A stretch of 20,000 nucleotides of DNA, taken from the IMG/VR virus record IMGVR_UViG_3300025647_000017; one strand, written 5' to 3'. How positions within the stretch are numbered: the first letter of the stretch is position 1; each line of letters starts with the position of its first letter. The notes beneath the pieces were generated by a model. The model searched no databases and was not told the DNA's origin. It was given only the letters and a program-made list of their open reading frames with translations. Positions 8,383-19,673 of this stretch are shown here, one piece after another. Both the position numbers and the translations under genes were made by a program. The stretch comes from an uncultured virus (IMG/VR IMGVR_UViG_3300025647_000017) (lineage: Duplodnaviria > Heunggongvirae > Uroviricota > Caudoviricetes).

Positions 8383-8817
8383 TTATGGTAACAACTTCAA
8401 ATTAGAACGTAAATTATTATTCTGTCTCTGCAGCACTTCTTCTGGTACTTCGTGTACATTACCACTGTCATGTCTGTTTTCTACGATAAGACTAATAACA
8501 TCATAGTTGTATTGTTCTGCCAATTCAATATAAGGTTTGATTTCCTTTTCAGTGGTAGAAGTGTTATGGACAATGATGACACCAATACCCAACTCCATAA
8601 AGTCATCAACTATACCTTTACACCACTTATGAGCTGCAGCTAAATTCTCTACTTTGAAATTGTAATTACCTTCCTCGTCATAATGAAAGTCATCTGCTGC
8701 CACAGCGTAACAACCTTTACTTCCAATATCATTGTCAATAAGATCTTGCAGCCAATCAGCCAAAGTTGTCTTACCTGCGCCACTACAACCTCTAAGTATA
8801 ATAAGTTTATTTTTCAT
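8383..8817 (-). CDS. P-loop kinase (AAA_33/polynucleotide-kinase-like)
   Basis: Walker A RGCSGAGKTT, AADDF, HNTST; start reassigned to ATG 8817 after GAGG; overlaps the RNA ligase stop. Confidence 0.75.
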   Translation of the reverse strand: MKNKLIILRGCSGAGKTTLADWLQDLIDNDIGSKGCYAVAADDFHYDEEGNYNFKVENLAAAHKWCKGIVDDFMELGIGVIIVHNTSTTEKEIKPYIELAEQYNYDVISLIVENRHDSGNVHEVPEEVLQRQNNNLRSNLKLLP

Positions 8818-9697
8818 TAAAATAGTCCTCAATTAATTGTCTACGTTCATTCTCACTAAAAGAATAATAAACTTCTTTAGTGTAACCGTCAAGTAAATAC
8901 TGGTGGAAATCATAAAATTCTTCATCGATTTGTTTCTTGAATTCAGTAGGATTATCAAATGCTAAATCAATACGTTTACGTCCCATGCGGAGGAAAGCTT
9001 TCTTACTCAAATAATGAGGTGACTTTAGTTTACATAACACAACTCCAGTTTTGGCACACAATATCATATAACCTTCTTTATTAGTTTCAGGTATATCTTT
9101 GAATTTCATTAACCCAACAGAAGGTCTATGACAATGTAATAAACGTGCCATATGATCTAACACCCATTCACTGGACAATTCTCCAGAGTTGGTAGATCTA
9201 ATACCAATTAAATAAGCTCCCTCATCTTCATATACAATATGTGGGTCTGAGTTATCACAAATTTCAAACATATGTGTATACCCAGTAAGCATCATATCTG
9301 TTGCTAAAGGTTCAATCCACTTACGGGCTAAGTCTGCATATTCAGAGTCAATTGTACCAGTGGTAGAGATAATCAATCCATACTTACGTGTCATAGTAGC
9401 ACACCCTAGGAAACCATTAATTTTGGTAGGTATTTCTACCATACGTTCAGGATCAATAGTAACTCCATTCTCACCAAGGTTAAATACTTTCTTAAATGGG
9501 TGTACAATAATATTATCATCTTCATCTACGACTAAGCCACGGCACTCTAGTAGACGTTCATCTAAGTGCCACAGGTTATCCCAGAATACTTTCTTAGTGT
9601 ATTTTAGGATCGACAAACCTTTATATTTACCTTCAGTATAAGTTTTCTTCTTAACCAAACCTTGTTCAATTAAATCATCCACATTAAATTTAGCCAT
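8807..9697 (-). CDS. RNA ligase, T4 Rnl1-like
   Basis: ECRGLV; nucleotidyltransferase motifs I KINGF, III MFEI, IV KEGYMI, V KLKS. Confidence 0.8.
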   Translation of the reverse strand: MAKFNVDDLIEQGLVKKKTYTEGKYKGLSILKYTKKVFWDNLWHLDERLLECRGLVVDEDDNIIVHPFKKVFNLGENGVTIDPERMVEIPTKINGFLGCATMTRKYGLIISTTGTIDSEYADLARKWIEPLATDMMLTGYTHMFEICDNSDPHIVYEDEGAYLIGIRSTNSGELSSEWVLDHMARLLHCHRPSVGLMKFKDIPETNKEGYMILCAKTGVVLCKLKSPHYLSKKAFLRMGRKRIDLAFDNPTEFKKQIDEEFYDFHQYLLDGYTKEVYYSFSENERRQLIEDYFNEK

Positions 9698-10259
9698 TAT
9701 TTCTTCTCCCTACAACTTCAATTTGTTTCAACTCAGATACCACATCTTCAAGGTTTAATATTTTACCGTGAGCATCCCAACCTACATCCATAGTACGACC
9801 TTCAATACCAGAAGGAGAATCATGCAAGTGTCCGTGAAGCGCTATGCTACCATGATCACACTCGTTCCAATGCTTGATTGGGTAGTGCATCATACAAAGT
9901 TTAACACCATTAAATCTAAATTCCAAATAATCATAGAAAGGTACTCCCATAGCTCCTAGAACCTTCCTACAATGGTTTCCAGCAACCCAAGTTATATTGC
10001 CATTAAGTTGAGATATGATTGCCTCAGTAGCTTCTCTACCTTTAAATGAGAAGTCACCTAAGCTAATAACCTCATCATCAACACCAACTATAGAGTTCCA
10101 ATGCTCAATCAATGCTGCATTCATATCATCAACATTAGACCAAGGTCGAGTATCAGGACAGAATCGTAAGACCCCTGTATGGTAGAAATGTAAATCGCTG
10201 GTGATAAAGTATCTGGTGTCAGTGTTAGATGTATTAATTTTCTGTCCAAATTTAATCAC
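9690..10259 (-). CDS. Calcineurin-like metallophosphoesterase
   Basis: SDLHFYH, LGDFS, GNH, HYP and LHGHLH motifs; GTG start with AGGAGG SD. Confidence 0.88.
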   Translation of the reverse strand: MIKFGQKINTSNTDTRYFITSDLHFYHTGVLRFCPDTRPWSNVDDMNAALIEHWNSIVGVDDEVISLGDFSFKGREATEAIISQLNGNITWVAGNHCRKVLGAMGVPFYDYLEFRFNGVKLCMMHYPIKHWNECDHGSIALHGHLHDSPSGIEGRTMDVGWDAHGKILNLEDVVSELKQIEVVGRRNNG

Positions 10260-10291
10260 TTTGTAAAGCCTCCTATTTAAATTAGACGATA

Positions 10292-10320
10292 AATATACAA
10301 TACTTAAATCTACCTGTCAA
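10292..10320 (-). promoter_or_regulatory. Sigma70-type promoter for the phosphoesterase-ligase-kinase-NAD genes
   Basis: TTGACA (10320-10315)-17 nt-TATATT (10297-10292). Confidence 0.65.
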
Positions 10321-10370
10321 CCTATAAAATAAAACCCACACAAATTAATACATGGGCTTGATGGTTTAGT

Positions 10371-11477
10371 CTACTTATTCAGTTCAGTAATATACCATGT
10401 ACGTGCTTTAGTTGATAGGTATTTTCCCACTTCCTTCATTGTAAGGTTATTACTTTCAAGGACATCACCTTCTTCTTTATTAATGTCTTTACTTACCCAA
10501 CTAAGGAATGCACCAATTAACTTCTGGTCTTTACCTACCTCAGCTAAGCCTTGTTGTAGTCTATTCTCTGTGGCGGAATACTCTACAAACTCTTGAATTG
10601 AATTTAACTTTTCTACATTGACTGAAGCTACAGATTTAACTTTAGACACAGAATGTTTTTCACCTTTAGTTTTAAACCAATTACCACTGTCCCAGCAATG
10701 TTCATCACTAACTGGAGTCCATACTAACCCCTCTCCAAGGACTTGTGGTTTACCTGCGGCGCTCATTAGGTTAAGTTGTTTTGACACAGGACACTCAGCC
10801 TCACAAGCTTCAGTGTAACCTACTAGAGTGTTCTGGACAAACATAGGATTCTGGAAATCAATAGTGACCTTCTTTGTAGGAAAATCTATGATAGCGTAGA
10901 AACCGTCAGCTTGGGTATCATTATTAGTAAGCCCATAAGTTAGTTCTACTGGCAACCAACCTTGTTTCAGTGTTTGGTCAGTATCCCCAGCCTTGATACC
11001 AAAAATAAATAAAGACTTCTTAGGCAAGAACGAGATACCAACCGAACTCTGAATACCACTTCCACACCATTCACCTGAAATCTTAAGAGGGTATAACTCA
11101 ACACCATTGTAAGCTTTGGCAAAAGTCTTTGCTCTTTCTATAATAGTGTACAGAGAATCTAACCTACGAACCATTGTTTGAGCGAACTCAGCATTATCTG
11201 AAAGTAAAGTAAATCCTCCATTTTTAATATAACCTAGTAAATTATTCTTACTATGGAACGAAATAACCCCGTCTTCATCAACTACAATACTAGCATTAGT
11301 CCCATGTAACTTCACAGTACCAATGTATTCAATAGTAGGTGCAATAGCAAGTTCATTTAAGATAACATTACCATCTGCATCAAACCCATTAAATTTAGCT
11401 TGTTGTTGAATATTCTTAACCACATTACGGAATTGACCAGTAGAGTGGAATGAGTAGTTTGTTGGTTGTTGTGACAT
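10371..11477 (-). CDS. RNA ligase, Rnl2 family
   Basis: Motifs I KLHGTNA, III SGEWCG, IIIa FIFGI, IV GEGLVW, V FKTKGEKH. Confidence 0.82.
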   Translation of the reverse strand: MSQQPTNYSFHSTGQFRNVVKNIQQQAKFNGFDADGNVILNELAIAPTIEYIGTVKLHGTNASIVVDEDGVISFHSKNNLLGYIKNGGFTLLSDNAEFAQTMVRRLDSLYTIIERAKTFAKAYNGVELYPLKISGEWCGSGIQSSVGISFLPKKSLFIFGIKAGDTDQTLKQGWLPVELTYGLTNNDTQADGFYAIIDFPTKKVTIDFQNPMFVQNTLVGYTEACEAECPVSKQLNLMSAAGKPQVLGEGLVWTPVSDEHCWDSGNWFKTKGEKHSVSKVKSVASVNVEKLNSIQEFVEYSATENRLQQGLAEVGKDQKLIGAFLSWVSKDINKEEGDVLESNNLTMKEVGKYLSTKARTWYITELNK

Positions 11478-11524: not shown

Positions 11525-11552
11525 ACTATATACTATATAAGAACAACGTCAA
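11525..11552 (-). promoter_or_regulatory. Sigma70-type promoter for the Rnl2-like gene
   Basis: TTGACG-16 nt-TATAGT with AT-rich sequence upstream. Confidence 0.5.
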
Positions 11553-11577
11553 CAACTATTTTTAATTTATTTAATAT

Positions 11578-11616
11578 AAAGAAGAACACCCCACTCACAT
11601 AAAGTAAGTGGGGTGT
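11578..11616 (-). terminator. Terminator after terL
   Basis: Stem acaccccact/agtggggtgt followed by a U-rich tail on the minus strand. Confidence 0.7.
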
Positions 11617-11700: not shown

Positions 11701-12414
11701 TTACTTGATGCGGCTTCTGTGGGCAGCCAATGCCGTGGGGGAGGAGATTGTTGGTAGTGGGTAGGCTTTATGCAATTTAGTCTTTTGCAGAAAAGCCATA
11801 CAATCGCCAGCGCAGTCAACCCAGTCATCCTTGATCGATGCTGTAGATGGACTTCCATCAAAAGCTTCTAACTCTTTGTAGAAAGCCTCTAAAGTGGCTT
11901 TATTTTCAAAAGAACTTTCAACTATATGTACTAACCCATTCTGACATGCAGAAGAGAATATAGAGAAACGCTTTACTTTGCCACCTTTTACGTTACCAAC
12001 TTCAGAACCTCTTACATGAAAACCTTCATTTGTAAGCATCTTAGCTAAGTCTTCAAACTGCGCCTTACCAGCGCCACTCTCTTTAGGCAGTAATATATAA
12101 GTATCTTCTCCATCCCATTGAGCTTGTTGCAACATCCATGTATTTCTCTCGCCAAAGCGTTTCCTAAACCTACCAACTACATCAGTTTTAGGGTCTTTTA
12201 TCTCTGGGTGATAATTAGCAACTATAAAATATAGGCCGTCCTTTCTAATCATACGTACTGATGCAGAATAATCTGGATATCTATTTTTGTCACTAGGTTC
12301 AGAATGAGCTAAATCCCATGCTCTACATGCTAAACCTCCAACTGGCTCATTATCTACTTTGTGTAACCACTCCCTCTGGAATAGGTTACTCCCTTCTGGT
12401 CTTGCTAGCCAATT
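11701..12414 (-). CDS. terL: terL exon 6 (nuclease domain, 237 codons)
   Basis: NWLARPEG...RAWDLA...PDYSA...KDDWVD. Confidence 0.9.
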   Translation of the reverse strand, partial: NWLARPEGSNLFQREWLHKVDNEPVGGLACRAWDLAHSEPSDKNRYPDYSASVRMIRKDGLYFIVANYHPEIKDPKTDVVGRFRKRFGERNTWMLQQAQWDGEDTYILLPKESGAGKAQFEDLAKMLTNEGFHVRGSEVGNVKGGKVKRFSIFSSACQNGLVHIVESSFENKATLEAFYKELEAFDGSPSTASIKDDWVDCAGDCMAFLQKTKLHKAYPLPTISSPTALAAHRSRIK

Positions 12415-14297
12415 CGATTTGTTACAAAATTGTTAAATCTTGCACCTTACGGTCTCTATGTCACCATAGAAGTTCAGACTATATCTTTACCTATTAAGGT
12501 ATCTAACATTTCCACCTACTAGAAGTAAGCGTACACCATTTCTGGTTAGTCGTTGCACTACACAATTATATATTTTGCATAGCTCAGTATTGTCTCAGAG
12601 AGATATCCACTGAATTAAATAGATTTATAAAGACGGCAATTGTTCACCGTCTAGTAGTCTTGCCCTGTTAATCTTAGTCTGTGCCTTAAGTGCAGACAGA
12701 TACTTCGGATTTTGTTTGATTAGGGCTGGATTCTTAACTCCTTGTTTTATAACAAGGAGTTTGGACTATATCTTCACCTCTAAAGGTGTTCTATTTTCGA
12801 GTATAAGCACCCTACACCCTAACGGGTTAGTCTCTGAAGGTGTTAACCTATGGTTAACGTCCCTGCTGATTGTCTTTAGTTTATAAAGAGTTCCCAGCAA
12901 TTAAAAGAATTTTCACCATGAAATTACTAACATGGGCGACAATCATCTATCGAATATATTTCCCCCAATAAAACAAAACGTCATTGGAGGGACGTACACT
13001 GTCTTATCTTCAATTGGATTATACACATAACATAGGTCTGGGTATTGCTCTGCCAATGTTTCAGGATCATCTGCGAACACTGGGGTATCATCAACTACCA
13101 AGAAATATCTTATATGCCCTAATTTACTCTCATCAAACACTCCAGTTTCATCTAAATAATACTCTACCCATTGAAAAACCCAACTATCTGCATCTGGGTT
13201 GGTAGTGGCTAACATAAATGAATCACTGTCTGCAGCAGAACGCATACGTCCCATTAAATATAAAAACTGCGAACAAGTGAAGTGAGTTAGTTCATCGAAT
13301 CCGACAAAAGAATATTGTAAACCTTGCTTGTAACCTATTGATTACTATGGACTATATCACTGTCTACTTAGTAGACACTCTATTTTCGAGATTGTATTAA
13401 TCCCTACACCCTAACGGGTTAGTCTCTGAAGGTGTTAACCTAGGGTTAACGTCCCTGCTGATTGGTCACTACGTGACTATCCCAGCAATTAAAAGAGTTA
13501 TTCGAAACACATTACTGTATTAAGCCACCAAATTTTAATGGTTACCTTCCGCGTCACTTTCATGCTCAAGGTGTGTAAATTTAAGGTTGCCTCCTTTATT
13601 ACCCTCTGCACCACTGAACATGATTTCCATGTCCTTTTCTCTCACCCTTGTTCCTAGGGGTTGGTATAATTTCTTTGCCTCACTAAACAGACCACCTGCT
13701 GCTTTCAATGGAGGGGAAGTCCTACGGAACATTACCCCCTCAAAGTTGGGGTCGTTGTGAGCGTAATACCCTGCCTTCAATAAGAGTAACCTACTTTTGC
13801 CAGATCCTGCCAAACTGGACTATTATTCTTTATGTCACCATAAAGCTTAGATCATATCTTCCACATATAAGTGGCTTTCCATTTCGAGTATAAATACCCT
13901 ACACCTCTTCAGGTTGATCGTTGCACACAGTATAATTAAATACCTTCGCTCAGTATTGTCTCGTAGAGATATCCACTGAATTAGAAAAGTTGATTATCGA
14001 GGTGCCACAGGATTTACTAGCACCTCCGTAGATCATTACATCTACCTTCATTTGCGCTGCTAACGCTTGTTTCACTACCTTACGTGGATCGTTACACCAC
14101 TCTATGCATTACTGCACAAGTTGAGACTATATCTTATTACTCTATTGTTTCGAGTTCACTTGAACTCTACATCCTTTCGGATTAGTCGTTACACGTTTTT
14201 AATTCGCTAGGTATTATCCTATAAGGGACCTTCACCTAATTAAATAGATTTATAGTAGGCAAACATTACCTACTTGCGGGGATAATTCATTACTCAT
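11701..14297 (-). CDS. terL: Terminase large subunit, six exons: 14297-14268, 14072-14019, 13810-13538, 13326-12949, 12732-12646, 12414-11701; 511 aa after splicing
   Basis: Spliced product: MSNELSPQVG^KQALAAQMKVDVMIYGGA^AGSGKS (Walker A)...EGNH^QGLQYSFVGFDELTHF (Walker B)...ATTNP...NIFD^NP...RLLDG^NW...RAWDLA...DDWVD; GAGAGG SD before ATG 14297; all joins in frame. Confidence 0.93.
12415..12645 (-). mobile_element. Group I intron 5 (231 nt, ORF-less)
   Basis: P1 AGACGGU/GCCGUCU; P10 CAAUU/AAUUG; R GCAACGACUA; S AAGAUAUAGUC; terminal G at 12415. Confidence 0.92.
12646..12732 (-). CDS. terL: terL exon 5 (29 codons)
   Basis: NPALIKQNPKYLSALKAQTKINRARLLDG. Confidence 0.88.
12733..12948 (-). 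mobile_element. Group I intron 4 (216 nt, ORF-less)
   Basis: P1 CGAU/GUCG; P10 GAUU/AAUC; P, Q, R, S elements as in intron 3; terminal G at 12733. Confidence 0.92.
12949..13326 (-). CDS. terL: terL exon 4 (126 codons)
   Basis: QGLQYSFVGFDELTHF (Walker B)...ATTNP...GGNIFD. Confidence 0.9.
13327..13537 (-). mobile_element. Group I intron 3 (211 nt, ORF-less)
   Basis: P1 CCAU/GUGG; P AAUUGCUGGGA; Q AAUCAGCAGG; R UUCAGAGACUA; S GAUAUAGUCC; terminal G at 13327. Confidence 0.92.
13538..13810 (-). CDS. terL: terL exon 3 (91 codons)
   Basis: AGSGKSRLLL...MFRRT...DAEGNH. Confidence 0.9.
13811..14018 (-). mobile_element. Group I intron 2 (208 nt, ORF-less) inside Walker A
   Basis: P1 GAGGUGCU/GGCACCUC; P10 AUCCUGU/GCAGGAU; P7 GAUCA/UGAUC, a compensatory variant of GACUA/UAGUC; terminal G at 13811. 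Confidence 0.92.
14019..14072 (-). CDS. terL: terL exon 2 (18 codons)
   Basis: KQALAAQMKVDVMIYGGA, the first half of Walker A. Confidence 0.88.
14073..14267 (-). mobile_element. Group I intron 1 (195 nt, ORF-less, IA2-like)
   Basis: P1 AGUAGGU/GCCUACU with U-G at the 5' splice site; P10 UGUUU/AAACA; R GUAACGACUA; S AAGAUAUAGUC; two hairpins after P7; terminal G at 14073. Confidence 0.9.
14268..14297 (-). CDS. terL: terL exon 1 (10 codons)
   Basis: MSNELSPQVG; the start overlaps the endonuclease stop. Confidence 0.85.
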
Positions 14298-15753
14298 AAC
14301 TGTACCTCTCTTTGTATAAATCTTCTATAAAAGATATATCTATATTATTGGAGAAGATGTCAGAGATATTAGGTAATATTACATCATCATTACTCCCGTC
14401 TATAATATCATTAACCATCTCGTATAGAGTACTATCTAGGTTGAATATTTCCGTATACCCTCCGAATTTTATATTTGATTTTACCTGTAGTGGCTTGAAG
14501 AACATTTTTAAACTACTTTCAATCCTAGCACAATCTAGATATGACATCCTTCTGTAATTGAGGAATGTAAAAACAGAGTCTAGTGGTAGGTCTTTCTTGT
14601 ATGTATACTCCCTACTAGATAGGCTACTAGTAATACCTATTTTATAAACATTATCATCTAAGGAATCCACATATCCTAGGTAAAAATACCCATACTTCTT
14701 ATGGATATTAGGTATTTTCAATATAGAGGCTATAGACCACCTATTCATACCTAACTTACCACACGTAGGGCAACCAGAGTTTTTATTCTTATCCCTGTGC
14801 ATTAGAGGGGTAACATTAAACCATTCATCGTGCTGATTACACTTAAGTTTAACCTTAGTGGTATTATTTACATACTGCACTAAGGAGTAATCTAGCGCAC
14901 CATTCCCATATTCCACAATAGAATCAGAGATAAATTGGTCTTTACCTAAAAACATACCTTCCCTAGAACATTTCTGACAACCTTGCCCATTTACATGGTT
15001 ATTGGCTATAACAGAAAATTCACCATGCCCTTGTTCCTTGCAAAACACTTTAACATTTTCAACAGCATTGATATATTCAGTATTGGTGTAGTCGTATAAG
15101 TTATTATGTACCTCCATTGCCTCTTTAATAAAAGCTTCGTTGGTTTTTGTCATGGATATTTTACGATCTTCTTCTCCGCATGTAGGGCAACCTTGCCCTT
15201 GTATATGTGCAGACGGTCTCTGTTTAAAAGGGATGTTGTGTTTTGTACATAAGATCTCCATCATAGTGCGACTACAAACATAGTCCTCTACGTTATACAC
15301 ATATTTATCTCCGTGCAATGCTTTTGCTTTAGTGATGAAGACCTCACCTTCTTTTAAAATTTTACAATTACCACACCCACCATAGGGAGTATCTCTAACA
15401 GAAGATAAAGTAGATACATAGTGTCCATGTAACATACAGAACATATCTTGTTTAGAGTGTATGGTTTGGTACTCAGGGTTATCTAATACCTCATATTTAT
15501 CACCGTGAGCCTTTTCAATTAAACCCTTCTGTATTTCAAAGTTCTCTCGTCTTCGTATAGCCAATGCACAATCACCGCACCTTTGTCTTGCGTGAATATG
15601 AGAGGAAGGCATCATAGTAAACTCACCATGTATTGGGCATATAATCCTAATACTAGTCAACATAGCTATATATGGGTCTGGGTATTCATAATAGTCACCG
15701 TGGATAGCCTTCGCTTTTTCTATGAAAGTTTTAGTATTAAATTTTTCAGCCAA
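14290..15753 (-). CDS. Free-standing putative homing endonuclease: five Cys/His zinc-binding repeats plus a C-terminal GIY-YIG-like (T5orf172-type) domain
   Basis: Five ~62-70 aa repeats of the form FI.KA...HG..Y.Y...C..H..F.....H....C..C; C-terminus GYFYL...YKIGIT...R...E...GYTEIF; TTG start probably 15753 after GGAGG. Confidence 0.75.
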   Translation of the reverse strand: MAEKFNTKTFIEKAKAIHGDYYEYPDPYIAMLTSIRIICPIHGEFTMMPSSHIHARQRCGDCALAIRRRENFEIQKGLIEKAHGDKYEVLDNPEYQTIHSKQDMFCMLHGHYVSTLSSVRDTPYGGCGNCKILKEGEVFITKAKALHGDKYVYNVEDYVCSRTMMEILCTKHNIPFKQRPSAHIQGQGCPTCGEEDRKISMTKTNEAFIKEAMEVHNNLYDYTNTEYINAVENVKVFCKEQGHGEFSVIANNHVNGQGCQKCSREGMFLGKDQFISDSIVEYGNGALDYSLVQYVNNTTKVKLKCNQHDEWFNVTPLMHRDKNKNSGCPTCGKLGMNRWSIASILKIPNIHKKYGYFYLGYVDSLDDNVYKIGITSSLSSREYTYKKDLPLDSVFTFLNYRRMSYLDCARIESSLKMFFKPLQVKSNIKFGGYTEIFNLDSTLYEMVNDIIDGSNDDVILPNISDIFSNNIDISFIEDLYKERYSYE

Positions 15754-16105
15754 TAGCAACCTCCACCTTATCTACATACCACTCAACATAGTTCCCTATA
15801 TAAAAGTTTGGTATACCGTCTAACACTTCTTCCCCAAACTTATCAAACAAAGTCTTAACTTCTTTCCACTTATCTTCTTGGAATTCAGAAGCTATATAGA
15901 TTTCATTATCATAATCAGAAAGGTCATGTGATGTACCACCATACGTATAATCTATATAATCTTCCTGAATAGACGGATCTAACCCTGCAATCAACATTGA
16001 AGTTCCATGACCTACGTGCTTCATAGAGCATTCGTCTTGATCACCACATCTATCAATCTGCCATAACAATTGATTAACCTTCAAATTAGCTTGTTTCTTA
16101 TTCAT
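15746..16105 (-). CDS. Hypothetical protein
   Basis: Start reassigned to ATG 16105 (MNKKQ) after AGGAG; overlaps the start of the next gene. Confidence 0.65.
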   Translation of the reverse strand: MNKKQANLKVNQLLWQIDRCGDQDECSMKHVGHGTSMLIAGLDPSIQEDYIDYTYGGTSHDLSDYDNEIYIASEFQEDKWKEVKTLFDKFGEEVLDGIPNFYIGNYVEWYVDKVEVAIG

Positions 16106-16115
16106 ATCCTCTCCT

Positions 16116-16472
16116 TTAGTGTAGTTTATCTTTAGTACCCATATCAATCATAATACTATTAATATGAGGTATCTTATTTAATAATTCAATCAGCTTATCC
16201 AATTCTACGTACCCGTAGAGGTCGCTGACACGTTCTTTCTCTCCTCCCTCCATCATCATATCATACTCCATAATTAACTCTGCTACGCCACTCTCAGGAG
16301 TCACAGTACCATGAAATGTATCTTGATAGTGTGTGAATGAGAATCCTACTACCTCATCACCTTCTTCATCTACATACATCCCAAGTGACCACACATGGTT
16401 TAGTTTACTTAATTTATCATATGCCTCTAGTGTAGAAGGTTTGCAGCACCCATTCTTATAATCTTCTAACAT
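16116..16472 (-). CDS. Hypothetical acidic protein
   Basis: Start reassigned to ATG 16472 (MLEDYK) after AAGGAG. Confidence 0.65.
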   Translation of the reverse strand: MLEDYKNGCCKPSTLEAYDKLSKLNHVWSLGMYVDEEGDEVVGFSFTHYQDTFHGTVTPESGVAELIMEYDMMMEGGEKERVSDLYGYVELDKLIELLNKIPHINSIMIDMGTKDKLH

Positions 16473-16761
16473 TGGTAATCTCCTTAGTGTTTGGGTTGTA
16501 GGTAGCCTCAACAGTGTAGTCACTACCTTCAGAAGCAGCTTTATCCCAAGCTCTATATAACCCATTACGTTGGTCTTCAGCACTAATCTCATCTAACACT
16601 TTAACCAACTTCAAACACTGCAACTCATTCTCCCACATAATCTTAAACTCCGTTTGAAGTTCATCAATTGACAGGGTAGTGTTGCAGTACTCCTTAATTT
16701 GGTTAAGTTTATATCCAGCTTTCCAACAGAACTTTAAGTCTTCATATAGTTTAGTTTCCAC
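16456..16761 (-). CDS. Hypothetical protein carrying a terminase-nuclease-like motif
   Basis: GTG start, AGGAGG SD, 101 aa; contains RAWDKAASEGSDYTV. Confidence 0.65.
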   Translation of the reverse strand: METKLYEDLKFCWKAGYKLNQIKEYCNTTLSIDELQTEFKIMWENELQCLKLVKVLDEISAEDQRNGLYRAWDKAASEGSDYTVEATYNPNTKEITNVRRL

Positions 16762-16763
16762 AG

Positions 16764-17003
16764 TTACTTACCTCCTGTAAACAACATCACAATGGTCATA
16801 TCACCAAAGATGAACCCTGACACTGTTGCTATGATTAGTAACATACCCAACAGGAAGTCACTTGTAACATTTTCTAAGCCACTTTGTTTACTTAGGTATA
16901 ACTTTACTCCATAGCCACACCACATAGCCGCTACAATCCACCACGGAACCCATGCACCTACTATCCAACCAATTAAACATACGAAACCTATTGTGATGAC
17001 CAT
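16764..17003 (-). CDS. Small membrane protein
   Basis: Start reassigned to ATG 17003 after GGAG; two to three hydrophobic segments. Confidence 0.6.
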   Translation of the reverse strand: MVITIGFVCLIGWIVGAWVPWWIVAAMWCGYGVKLYLSKQSGLENVTSDFLLGMLLIIATVSGFIFGDMTIVMLFTGGK

Positions 17004-17004
17004 A

Positions 17005-17205
17005 CTATCTCTCCACCTTATCACAACTCACATTAAAATCATTCCCAGCACTCAAGTCATCGAATACCTCAACACCATTAATCATTAAGTAGAATCTGCC
17101 TCCATCATACCCTGTTTCAAAGGATGTAACACCTTTTGGCAATTTCACTTCTGATTCATTATTAAAACACTGGTTAGAATAATCTGTGAACACAACTTTA
17201 CTCAT
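17005..17205 (-). CDS. Hypothetical protein
   Basis: 66 aa, AAGGAG SD, first gene after a promoter. Confidence 0.65.
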   Translation of the reverse strand: MSKVVFTDYSNQCFNNESEVKLPKGVTSFETGYDGGRFYLMINGVEVFDDLSAGNDFNVSCDKVER

Positions 17206-17236
17206 AATTTTTCTCCTTCAATTAATGTAAGACCTA

Positions 17237-17265
17237 ATAGTAACTATACATTTAGTACCTGTCAA
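17237..17265 (-). promoter_or_regulatory. Sigma70-type promoter
   Basis: TTGACA (17265-17260)-17 nt-TACTAT (17242-17237). Confidence 0.7.
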
Positions 17266-17284
17266 CAACTAATCCTAAATTTTA

Positions 17285-17470
17285 GATAAAATAAATCCCG
17301 CTCTCACACTAAACGATGAGGCGGGATGAAGGAGGAATGTTCGAGAACCTATGAAGGAAGTTCTCTGGAAGGCTTTGGCAACCTTAATGCTGCTCTCATT
17401 TTAGTGTGTTGTATAGATACATATAGCAAGGAGTTACAAGGAGGGAGTAATCATCCTCACTGTATCTATA
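17285..17470 (-). ncRNA. Candidate ~185-nt small RNA or attenuator
   Basis: Own promoter (TTGCTT 17504-17499; TGA-TATAAT 17483-17475), 10-bp 5' stem (17461-17470/17412-17421), internal hairpin, terminator at 17285-17327, no ORF. Confidence 0.5.
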
Positions 17471-17507
17471 GGTAATTATATCAGATGGTTAATAGGGTAA
17501 GCAAATG

Positions 17508-17846
17508 TTAACCTTGTTTCTGTTCTGGAGGTGTGAATGCTACTAAGCTGATTGATGGTGCATTCGACTTTGGTAAAGCTAATGCTGCTGCTAACCCTTC
17601 TGCTTCTGCATCTTCTTTCTCATCCGCAGCCAAGGTAGCAGCCTCTGATTCCTTCATTTCTTTATATAATTTCAGAGTAGTATCAGCAGCACGAAGAACA
17701 GTACTATCAGCAGCCTTATCGTCATTAAGAATAGCCTCTATACGCTTCATAGCTTGTTCTACTAGAGTAGGTACCTTAGCCTTCATTTTAGCAGGAATTT
17801 CCCGCCAGTTACGCTCAGCCACATTTTCTGTTGTAGGTCTAGCCAT
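17508..17846 (-). CDS. Putative terminase small subunit
   Basis: 112 aa from ATG 17846 (MARPT), helical core, acidic linker, C-terminal beta-like PSISLVAF; lies upstream of terL; function inferred from architecture only. Confidence 0.45.
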   Translation of the reverse strand: MARPTTENVAERNWREIPAKMKAKVPTLVEQAMKRIEAILNDDKAADSTVLRAADTTLKLYKEMKESEAATLAADEKEDAEAEGLAAALALPKSNAPSISLVAFTPPEQKQG

Positions 17847-18051
17847 TTTCATCACCTAATAATTCTTGTTTATTATATTCATCTAGTGCAACATTAAATA
17901 GTTGTTCACCAGTAATTGGTAGTTCATACTCATCTTCATAACCCTTACATGAATTACACATGTAATCGTACTTAGAGTTTGATACATATGAGGGGTTTTT
18001 AATTATCTCGCCACATGGACAGATCACGTTTATTTCCTTATTGGATTTCAT
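17839..18051 (-). CDS. Small putative zinc-ribbon protein
   Basis: CPCG...CNSC motif pair; overlaps the start of the next gene. Confidence 0.55.
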   Translation of the reverse strand: MKSNKEINVICPCGEIIKNPSYVSNSKYDYMCNSCKGYEDEYELPITGEQLFNVALDEYNKQELLGDENG

Positions 18052-18099
18052 TTCCAACTGTTATTGTGTTATAAACACTGTTGTTTAATCTATAATAGT

Positions 18100-18128
18100 A
18101 TGTTACCACGTATGAATATGTTGGTCAA
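18100..18128 (-). promoter_or_regulatory. Sigma70-type promoter
   Basis: TTGACC-17 nt-TAACAT with an extended -10 TG. Confidence 0.5.
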
Positions 18129-18161
18129 ACTTATGAGGTTGTATGTCAAATTACAGGTATG

Positions 18162-18184
18162 AAAAAGCCCACCATAGGTGAGCT
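18162..18184 (-). terminator. Rho-independent terminator
   Basis: Minus strand AGCTCACC-TAT-GGTGGGCT followed by TTTT. Confidence 0.7.
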
Positions 18185-18189
18185 AACAG

Positions 18190-18579
18190 TTATAGTATGA
18201 ATTCTATCTTATTTAATAAGAATTGGTAATCGTAATCTGAGTTCCAAACTCTTTGATACACACAAGATAACATGTCTACATCCTCTACCATAAATTCATT
18301 ACCAACCACAATAAAGTTAATAATCTGGTGTAATGAAGCTATAACGTTTGATTTATATGGTGCATGTTGCAGTCGTTGTAGTGCAACACTTATATCATGC
18401 AAATAGGAATGTACCGCATTAGAAGGTATATTATCCTTAAGACAAGCTTGTTTTACCCTTACATCAGCTAACAATAACTCTATACGCTTAAATATCTTAT
18501 TGTGCAAGCCACTTGGTACATCGGGGCCAAGTCTTTGGTATACTTTAGCTAATTCCGCTATTTCTGTAAAATTATTCAT
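18190..18579 (-). CDS. Hypothetical protein
   Basis: 129 aa ORF with AGGAG SD. Confidence 0.65.
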   Translation of the reverse strand: MNNFTEIAELAKVYQRLGPDVPSGLHNKIFKRIELLLADVRVKQACLKDNIPSNAVHSYLHDISVALQRLQHAPYKSNVIASLHQIINFIVVGNEFMVEDVDMLSCVYQRVWNSDYDYQFLLNKIEFIL

Positions 18580-18630
18580 TTGTTTATTATTCTCCTGTCA
18601 CTTCCTAACTTAAGGAAATTTATTGGGTTG

Positions 18631-18655
18631 ATAAAAGCCCCGCATCTGCGGGAAC
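18631..18655 (-). terminator. Terminator closing the non-coding RNA region
   Basis: Minus strand CCCGC-AGAT-GCGGG then GCTTTTAT. Confidence 0.65.
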
Positions 18656-19402
18656 ATTTGTATGAGTGCATACCTGAAGCTAATCTGTCTTCAGTGGAAC
18701 TCAATGGTTCGGTACGTCTACCTAGATATTCGCAGTATCTTACTTCTGACTTTATAACAGAGCTTAGTAGAGGAACCTAACTCACAAGTAAGGACGTTTC
18801 CAAGGTTATTTATAAAGTTTTTAGTCATTACTACGGTTGCTACTTATATACCGACCAACCTCTAATAATAGGAGAAAATCGGTGTTGCGTTCTTTGTTCA
18901 CATGGTCGCTTACGTGTCTAATTTCTAATCCACCTAGCAGTGGTAACTTATTAGGAGAGTTGTATATGCACTATATTTCAGTGGAAGTAACTGCATACTA
19001 TTCTACCACCTTTACACACGAAACCTGTTTAAAGTCTGCTGTGCTATTGCCGACTAACTTGCCTTACGGCTACCATATGACGACATCATCAATTAAATTG
19101 AGAGAGGAACTTCATACTACCTTCTGTTCAACGCATCTGCGTTCACTTAATATAATGGTTTCAGTATAACCTCCACCACAGTGTCTACCATATGTAATTA
19201 TAACTAGAACTCATTAATAATGAGGGAAGTGTATAAATACTAACAAACAAGACCTTGTAATTAAAACCTATTACCGCATCGCACTGACCATTTTACTGGT
19301 TGGGAAGGAAACCTACTGCCTAGGTAAACATTAAACTATCTAGCGCCTCAGTAGGGACAAGTCATCCTTATCGTCTTGAGTTTATACACATCAGAAGTGT
19401 TA

Positions 19403-19475
19403 ATATGATTGTGAGATTCGAACTCACGTCCCCGTCTTTAGAACGGATATCTAGGCCAACTGAAAATAAATCATA
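19403..19475 (-). tRNA. Degenerate tRNA or pseudo-tRNA (nominal anticodon TAA, uncertain)
   Basis: Acceptor TATGATT/AATCATA; canonical T arm GTGAG-TTCGAAT-CTCAC; anticodon stem TCCGT/ACGGG with loop TCTAAAG; weak D stem, no U33, no encoded CCA. Confidence 0.6.
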
Positions 19476-19673
19476 TTATTAAAGTATCTGTTATCTAGTC
19501 GCTTGCTAGAGGCTGCGAAACATAAAATAAGCCATGCTACTGCACAGTCAAAACACTTTAATAATATAAACTATTTACGTCAGTTACTCGTTCAAAACAC
19601 CTTCTCACACTACACTGAGCAAAACTGTACTATATCTCAATGGTGTTGTCTAGTACTGACGGTGTTTTAAAAT

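Follow-up and report, generated by a model that had tools for sequence, protein, structure and literature searches.

A 20,000-nucleotide (nt) stretch of DNA from an uncultured virus of the Caudoviricetes (IMGVR_UViG_3300025647_000017; hereafter the window, in whose coordinates positions are given unless another record is named) carries a nuclease gene directly upstream of a terL gene with five group I introns. The product of this gene is probably a free-standing homing endonuclease from the T5orf172 branch within the GIY-YIG superfamily, and the gene resides in a hot spot at the terL 5' end, with the terL introns as independent co-residents. The observed basis of this reading consists of the domain identity, the catalytic Arg and Glu, the free-standing position, the presence and absence of the gene in relatives, and the occupancy of the hot spot. 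From these observations we infer cleavage by the enzyme, the location of its target and its mobility. The gene and its parts are as follows.

14290..15753, minus strand: endonuclease gene, 487 amino acids (aa) from TTG 15753; matches PHROG 681 'endonuclease' at E 1e-70
14755..15738, minus strand: five tandem zinc modules, residues ~8-66, 76-134, 138-196, 207-266 and 273-335 (numbering of the 489-aa frame)
14404..14691, minus strand: T5orf172 / GIY-YIG-superfamily nuclease domain, residues 357-452, from Pfam matches and conserved columns
14293..14403, minus strand: C-terminal helical tail, residues 453-489, kept in orthologues; its last codons hold the terL ribosome-binding site and ATG
14290..14297, minus strand: overlap of the gene ends, 8 nt; endonuclease stop TAA at 14292-14290, terL ATG at 14297-14295

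The open frame covers 14290..15759 on the minus strand and has 489 codons when counted from its first TTG (15759). The likely start codon is the TTG at 15753-15751, with GGAGG 6 nt before it, and the resulting 487-aa product is identical to a called protein already on record. An earlier sequence-only reading of this DNA had described a free-standing gene whose end overlaps the start of terL. Both points were borne out, as the gene ends at 14290, the first intron begins at 14267 within terL, and the TAA and the ATG lie within the 8 shared nucleotides. The overlap probably ties expression of the endonuclease to that of terL and hinders clean loss of the gene.

The five tandem Cys/His repeats and the C-terminal GIY-YIG-like domain named in the same reading were confirmed by the ligand pattern and by the Pfam families PF10544 and PF13455. 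Each module is ~65 aa long with the ligand set C-x2(4)-H ... C-x2-C, and the CxxC motifs of the five modules are located at residues 61, 129, 191, 261 and 330. In an alignment of 20 sequences the zinc ligands were invariant or nearly so. The array presumably serves as a sequence-reading head. The repeat region matched PHROG 4605 in four stretches and PHROG 559 over residues 75-348. Furthermore, the precomputed Pfam annotation of the 487-aa protein is PF05265 (DUF723), a family that also matched the orthologue in Vibrio phage S4-7 (E 7e-8).

The nuclease domain matched PF10544 (T5orf172) over residues 357-452 with E 4.3e-7 and 30.8 bits against a cut-off of 20, and PF13455 (MUG113) with 28.9 bits against a cut-off of 22.3. 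Its characteristic residues are Y360, YKIGIT at 372-377 (K373-I-G375), R383, E414 and GGYTE at 433-437 (E437). Across the 20 sequences R383 was nearly invariant, and E414 and E437 were invariant. Judged by their spacing, these residues would be equivalent to R27 and E75 of I-TevI and to E180 of Odn. DNA cleavage by a T5orf172 domain has been proven for Odn of phage ICP1, in which the E180A change abolished cutting (PMC8263062).

The full AlphaFold model had a mean predicted local distance difference test (pLDDT) score of 88, with values of ~85-95 across the zinc modules. Its low predicted template modelling (pTM) score of 0.42 is expected because the modules are arranged as beads on a string. 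The C-terminal 150 residues, modelled separately, reached a pLDDT of 92 and a pTM of 0.86. An alignment-based structure search with this domain model placed GIY-YIG nucleases or GIY-YIG-like chains at seven of the ten top matches, with Z values of only 2.8-5.4 (Slx1 5.4 and 5.2, HIGLE 4.8, I-TevI 3.4, UvrC 3.2, T4 Endo II 2.8). Because these values are low, we counted the GIY-YIG fold as supportive only. The same search with the full model was dominated by residues 61-137, which gave unspecific helical matches. A sequence search of solved structures returned no match at E <= 1, and the NCBIfam search of the protein returned nothing meaningful.

The closest sequenced relative is Shewanella phage 1/40, which is ~82% identical in terL DNA. 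No homologue of the endonuclease was found in its complete 139-kb genome. At the corresponding locus the first 18 nt of the open reading frame (ORF) upstream of the endonuclease gene are kept, followed by ~50 nt and then by terL.

15746..16105, minus strand: upstream ORF, 119 aa from ATG 16105, no assigned function, resident neighbour
14298..16086, minus strand: segment of ~1.8 kb (upstream ORF body and endonuclease gene), replaced by ~50 nt in 1/40

Phage 1/40 also has an unannotated 25-codon frame (L001 7878-7951, minus strand), whose first six codons are those of the upstream ORF and which overlaps the terL ATG. This frame is probably the remnant of a deletion that took out the upstream ORF, and the same deletion possibly also removed an endonuclease gene.

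We surveyed the slot 5' of terL in 11 related phage loci, the window included, with the following occupants.

5 of 11 loci (window, VPMCC14, S4-7, 1.084.O, ICP1): T5orf172-type gene abutting or overlapping the terL start
1 of 11 loci (2L372X): CapR plus T5orf172 gene one ORF further upstream
4 of 11 loci (10AMN, IBT_VpB-34, P018-4, vB_CoeS_P1): Endo VII/HNH-type gene (PHROG 1035) overlapping the terL start
1 of 11 loci (1/40): empty slot

Orthology among the slot occupants is confined to the proteins from the window, VPMCC14 and S4-7, which are collinear, share 37-48% identity and have five CxxC motifs each. The T5orf172 genes of ICP1 and 1.084.O are not orthologous to the window gene. The slot protein of VPMCC14 matched no Pfam family at E <= 0.01 and was classed as T5orf172-type because it is collinear with the window protein, including the C-terminal domain, and matches PHROG 681.

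The occupant of the slot thus differs between relatives: the gene is absent from 1/40, and VPMCC14 and 10AMN carry different slot nucleases beside TerL proteins that are 92-100% identical. A divergence gradient near the slot gave no clear signal in the comparison of VPMCC14 with 10AMN, as identity took values of 84%, 93% and 89% along terL. The window TerL is 26-34% identical to TerL of VPMCC14 and S4-7, and the endonuclease is 37-41% identical. This unlike relatedness of the two proteins fits a position of the gene at a boundary of genetic exchange, a pattern that Barth, Dunham and Seed describe (PMC10448857). The wider distribution is patchy and multi-copy: a tblastn search found the family at 1801 places in 658 phage records, often several per genome, and up to 10 in one 49-kb genome.

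Metagenomic homologues that are 47-49% identical include P0003 and P0007, the latter encoded on a 136-kb contig. A scan of IMG/VR with the single protein returned only the same phage (contig L004, 99.75% identical over window 11868-18197). With the 20-sequence alignment the scan returned 80 loci, and beyond L004 the best segments were 29-41% identical and mostly covered the zinc-repeat part only. A metagenome scan with a closer alignment gave 13 loci, of which the sole close one was the same contig. Where L004 (3307-3570) aligns with window 18197-18661, identity falls to 94%, and upstream of 18197 it is followed by scattered matches. This marks a recombination boundary a few kb upstream of the endonuclease gene.

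In 2L372X, terL and the portal gene have a CapR-repeat gene on either side (L101 1176-2414 and 6387-7379). The one upstream has four CapR modules and a T5orf172 domain, and the downstream gene has three CapR modules and no T5orf172 match. Together the two CapR-repeat genes look like the bracket of a 'homing endonuclease gene (HEG) island' as described in PMC10448857.

The slot survey bears on an alternative in which the protein does not home and is instead a domesticated nuclease or DNA binder, acting as a packaging aid like the HNH protein of HK97, in the exclusion of phages or satellites like Odn, or as a repressor like CapR. In its favour, a nuclease gene of one family or another overlaps the terL start in nine of the 11 loci. 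Domestication is raised as an alternative in the discussion of PMC10448857, and for this class of protein it is documented by CapR and Odn (PMC10448857, PMC8263062). Against it, 1/40 packages its DNA with an empty slot and no homologue, and non-homologous nucleases are swapped between phages with near-identical TerL, which is easier to reconcile with selfish genes that replace each other than with a fixed function. Retention of the catalytic residues makes a pure repressor role unlikely. We therefore regard domestication as distinctly improbable and favour a homing endonuclease.

Rfam located five group I introns in terL, three of them above the gathering score (74.9, 69.4 and 53.1 bits) and two slightly under it (48.8 and 43.5 versus 50; E 1e-10 and 4e-9). 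Intron borders were set by comparison with phage 1/40 together with the rule that a U precedes the intron and a G ends it. Each of the five introns obeys this rule, with a U before its 5' splice site and a G as its last base. In silico splicing joined the exons to 1545 nt encoding a stop-free TerL of 514 aa, which aligns over its entire length with TerL from the intronless gene of S4-7. The resulting gene model is as follows.

14268..14297, minus strand: terL exon 1, 30 nt, MSNELSPQVG; from the alignment to the uninterrupted terL start of 1/40 and the splice model
14073..14267, minus strand: intron 1, group I, 195 nt; P1 pairs GUAGGU with GCCUAC; absent from 1/40
13820..14018, minus strand: intron 2, group I, 199 nt; at the site directly after YGGA, just before Walker A
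13327..13537, minus strand: intron 3, group I, 211 nt; from Rfam and the splice model
12733..12948, minus strand: intron 4, group I, 216 nt; absent from 1/40
12415..12645, minus strand: intron 5, group I, 231 nt; site in common with 1/40
11701..14072, minus strand: terL exons 2-6 (14072-14019, 13819-13538, 13326-12949, 12732-12646, 12414-11701), interleaved with introns 2-5

Rfam placed intron 1 at 14102-14308, which is shifted. With its true borders at 14073-14267, intron 1 does not overlap the endonuclease gene, which therefore stands outside every intron. In agreement with the sequence-only reading the introns are ORF-less: at 195-231 nt they are too short for an endonuclease ORF, and the longest chance frames that touch them measure 41-44 aa. 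Introns 1 and 2 are inserted after 30 and 84 nt of coding sequence, counted from the terL ATG, and all five fall within 831 coding nt. Introns 3 and 4 are 82.5% identical over 126 nt, introns 2 and 5 are 72% identical over 166 nt, and intron 1 has short blocks in common with intron 5. These similarity groups suggest that introns may have spread inside terL by routes other than the endonuclease.

The sequence-only reading had also proposed that the enzyme cuts intronless terL at one or more of the five insertion sites. Comparison of the five sites revealed no common flanking sequence, which implies that one sequence-specific enzyme would be unable to target them all. The proposal therefore shrinks to one or two targets at most. 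Across the relatives at least eight different insertion sites were found in terL.

Co-occurrence of the gene with terL introns among related phages had been named in advance as a check on their cooperation. The interruptions of terL in the surveyed loci were as follows.

Window: five introns
VPMCC14: one intron, between FD and EF, ~500 nt downstream
S4-7: no intron
1.084.O: no intron
ICP1: one intron, directly after YGGA, from the published paper and an annotation gap; not detected by Rfam at E <= 1e-3
2L372X: one intron
10AMN and IBT_VpB-34: two introns, one with an HNH ORF
P018-4: two introns
vB_CoeS_P1: no intron; in-frame insert of ~139 aa
1/40: three introns, one with an HNH ORF; those at sites 2 and 5 homologous to window introns

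Co-occurrence did not prove to be the rule. Two of the six loci with a T5orf172-type gene upstream have an intronless terL (S4-7 and 1.084.O), and five loci combine introns and/or an intein-like insert with a slot that has no T5orf172 gene. The site of window intron 2 is occupied also in 1/40, 10AMN, IBT_VpB-34, P018-4 and ICP1, the first four of which lack a T5orf172 gene. As far as these sequences tell, endonuclease and introns assort independently among the relatives.

The terL of vB_CoeS_P1 (L102 2741-4714) shows another type of interruption. It is a single frame of 657 aa, in which the insert of ~139 aa begins with a Cys inside Walker A, after YGGSAG. The insert looks like a mini-intein, and two codons separate it from the place where window intron 2 is inserted.

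These data are relevant for collaborative homing, according to which the enzyme recognises intronless terL at site 1 or 2, the intron splits the recognition site and thereby confers self-immunity, and the gene and its intron or introns spread together. The layout is that of published cases, in which a conserved gene with ORF-less group I introns has a free-standing nuclease gene as its neighbour (PMC3984707, PMC10448857). Introns 1 and 2 are located only 30 and 84 coding nt from the endonuclease stop, neither intron 1 nor the endonuclease gene is present in phage 1/40, and in ICP1 a T5orf172 gene accompanies an intron inserted where window intron 2 is. The true orthologues do not fit this pattern, however, as terL of S4-7 is intronless and that of VPMCC14 has one intron, ~500 nt downstream. 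Nor does 1.084.O, with its T5orf172 gene beside an intronless terL, or the presence of a site-2 intron in four phages without a T5orf172 gene. The lack of a motif common to the five insertion sites also argues against it. On balance we consider collaborative homing rather unlikely.

Its most specific version, that the five-finger T5orf172 enzyme spans sites 1 and 2 of intronless terL, with introns 1 and 2 as immunity devices, and that the endonuclease gene and the intron-bearing 5' part of terL home as a single cassette, is likewise doubtful. If true, it would represent collaborative homing by a nuclease family for which this has merely been suggested so far, and here with two partner introns.

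Contigs from metagenomes provide a view of the locus in nature. In all four runs, from three studies, contigs extend from the 3' end of the endonuclease gene across its junction with terL at ~95-100% identity. At this identity the endonuclease gene and introns 1-2 remain linked in environmental variants, and their linkage in variants that are ~95% identical is a further point in favour of collaborative homing. Five contig joints were listed for the four runs, none of which cleanly omits the endonuclease gene or an entire intron. Three joints connect similar intron cores and have a shorter side of 23-24 letters. The two at 13297>13948 and 13982>13538 stem from a variant in run X10 (~95% identical; window 13297-13982) whose intron at site 3 is a different one and resembles window intron 2. 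Hence, intron content differs between strains and the exons are kept.

The sequence-only reading had also considered that the protein may act as a maturase, that is, bind the terL introns in trans and be needed for their efficient splicing. With five introns, an essential gene such as terL could come to need splicing help. We know of no GIY-YIG or T5orf172 maturase. Some intron-encoded endonucleases do double as maturases, for example ones of the LAGLIDADG type (PMC3984707). No RNA-binding domain was matched in the Pfam and NCBIfam scans of the protein. Moreover, the essential terL of 1/40 has homologous introns at sites 2 and 5 as well as a third intron, with no homologue of the protein in the 1/40 genome. 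As far as sequence comparison can tell, this is a strong argument against a maturase role, to which we give hardly any credence.

Of the proposed homing system, the homing endonuclease itself is well backed by the comparative data; the ideas of cutting at the five sites, of co-occurrence with the introns and of a maturase role are not supported. For the favoured homing endonuclease we propose the following course of events. The five zinc modules, putatively of the DUF723/CapR type and strung like beads, would recognise a long DNA site, with cutting left to the C-terminal domain. Nuclease genes from several families have settled repeatedly in the slot directly 5' of terL. When two phages infect the same cell, the enzyme would cut terL-proximal DNA of a relative without the gene, and repair from the endonuclease-bearing genome would copy the gene with flanking DNA. 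Introns 1 and 2, which are nearest, could be carried along by co-conversion and would not be required partners.

Several results weigh against this explanation. The Pfam scan of the window protein gave weak matches to DUF4379 and zinc ribbons, and to neither DUF723 nor CapR. The fold matches are weak, with Z values not exceeding 5.4, and Foldseek searches against the PDB with the full and domain models gave nothing at E <= 1e-3. No endonuclease-less allele of this phage was present in the contigs of the four runs, which are of a kind that drops rare variants. Finally, the orthologues hold the same position at an identity of only 37-48%, as might be expected of a conserved packaging role that benefits the host phage, which is possible.

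The minus-strand gene order of the region is small ORFs, the endonuclease gene, terL, a block for RNA repair and nicotinamide adenine dinucleotide (NAD) salvage, portal, protease and major head protein. The upstream ORF gave no match in family profile searches. Its homologue (51% identity) has the same position in VPMCC14 and 10AMN and is located elsewhere in Aeromonas phage 2L372X. The upstream ORF was considered as a part of the endonuclease element and rejected, given the different location of its homologue in Aeromonas phages. A check for replacement of the small terminase showed that the window has no homologue of the 115-aa ORF that precedes terL in 2L372X. The promoter scan of 13900-17300 was at chance level (13 promoter-like sites versus 15.0 +/- 4.2 expected), and the terminator scan of the same interval found none on the coding strand.

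Further observations concern the surroundings. A tRNA-Leu gene (anticodon taa) is located at 19402-19476 on the minus strand. Between terL and the PRPP-kinase/NAPRT genes, window 8383-11477 (minus strand) encodes an RNA-repair set comprising an RNA ligase, a phosphoesterase, a second RNA-ligase-like gene and a PNK-like ATPase. In its place, phage 1/40 (L001 2250-4784) has a tRNA nucleotidyltransferase and another nucleotidyltransferase, so that a different RNA-repair module has been swapped in beside terL. A stretch of 50 nt just 3' of terL (11548-11597) is 84% identical to an intergenic stretch located elsewhere in 1/40 (L001 9551-9599), and may be a shared regulatory or repeat element.

Among known enzymes, I-TevI and the Seg proteins of T4 combine a GIY-YIG catalytic domain with a separate DNA-binding region, and the Seg proteins are free-standing. 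The window protein differs from them in having KIG for YIG, a C-terminal catalytic domain and a DNA-binding part of five tandem zinc modules. With Odn (ICP1 Gp88) it shares the T5orf172 nuclease family and a modular build of DNA-binding head and nuclease; the head of Odn, in contrast, is of the RepA_N type and not made of zinc fingers, and its role is anti-satellite defence rather than homing (PMC8263062).

Collaborative or trans homing has been described for F-CphI with the psbA intron of cyanophage S-PM2 and for mobE with the nrdB intron of T-even phages (PMC3984707, PMC2790892, PMC6083498). According to these sources, F-CphI and mobE are Endo VII/HNH types with measured cleavage at the intron insertion site, whereas the window nuclease is of the T5orf172 type. 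Unlike in those systems, moreover, genes of the window type and introns assort independently among relatives.

The proteins of VPMCC14 (UUW39743.1) and S4-7 (AOQ26834.1), both unannotated Vibrio phage proteins, are collinear with the window protein over the full length (41% and 37% identity, respectively) and share with it the five CxxC modules, the C-terminal domain with its tail and the position directly 5' of terL. In contrast, their terL genes belong to another clade (26-34% identity) and have one intron or none.

The closest parallel in layout is ICP1, where ORF130/gp131 'endonuclease' is a T5orf172 homing endonuclease gene beside the N-terminal exon of terL (Barth, Dunham & Seed 2023, PMC10448857). 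That study demonstrated terL splicing by RNA sequencing and reverse-transcription PCR, discussed collaborative homing or endonuclease turnover, and reported tandem CapR/DUF723/DUF4379 zinc-finger repeats in T5orf172 endonucleases, up to six in phage Helene. Both the ICP1 and the window gene encode a T5orf172 domain with an N-terminal zinc-finger part (CapR in ICP1), both overlap the terL ATG with their stop, and both phages have an ORF-less terL intron directly after YGGA, just before Walker A, which is the site of window intron 2. In contrast, the match between the two proteins is local (24% over ~260 residues), the ICP1 protein has 396 aa and another N-terminal architecture, and the genes are not orthologous. 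Furthermore, ICP1 has one terL intron and the window five.

The locus hence reveals no new kind of system. It is a well-resolved example of the terL 5' end as a hot spot of competing nuclease genes, introns and an intein-like insert. It also provides natural comparison sets for cooperation between endonuclease and introns, namely the window versus 1/40, VPMCC14 versus 10AMN, and the intronless S4-7. The five-module zinc-finger head is of possible interest for how modular DNA-reading arrays set the specificity of a nuclease. Compared with ICP1, from which the layout was already known, the window gene is a new, non-orthologous case, with a five-module head beside an unusually intron-rich terL.

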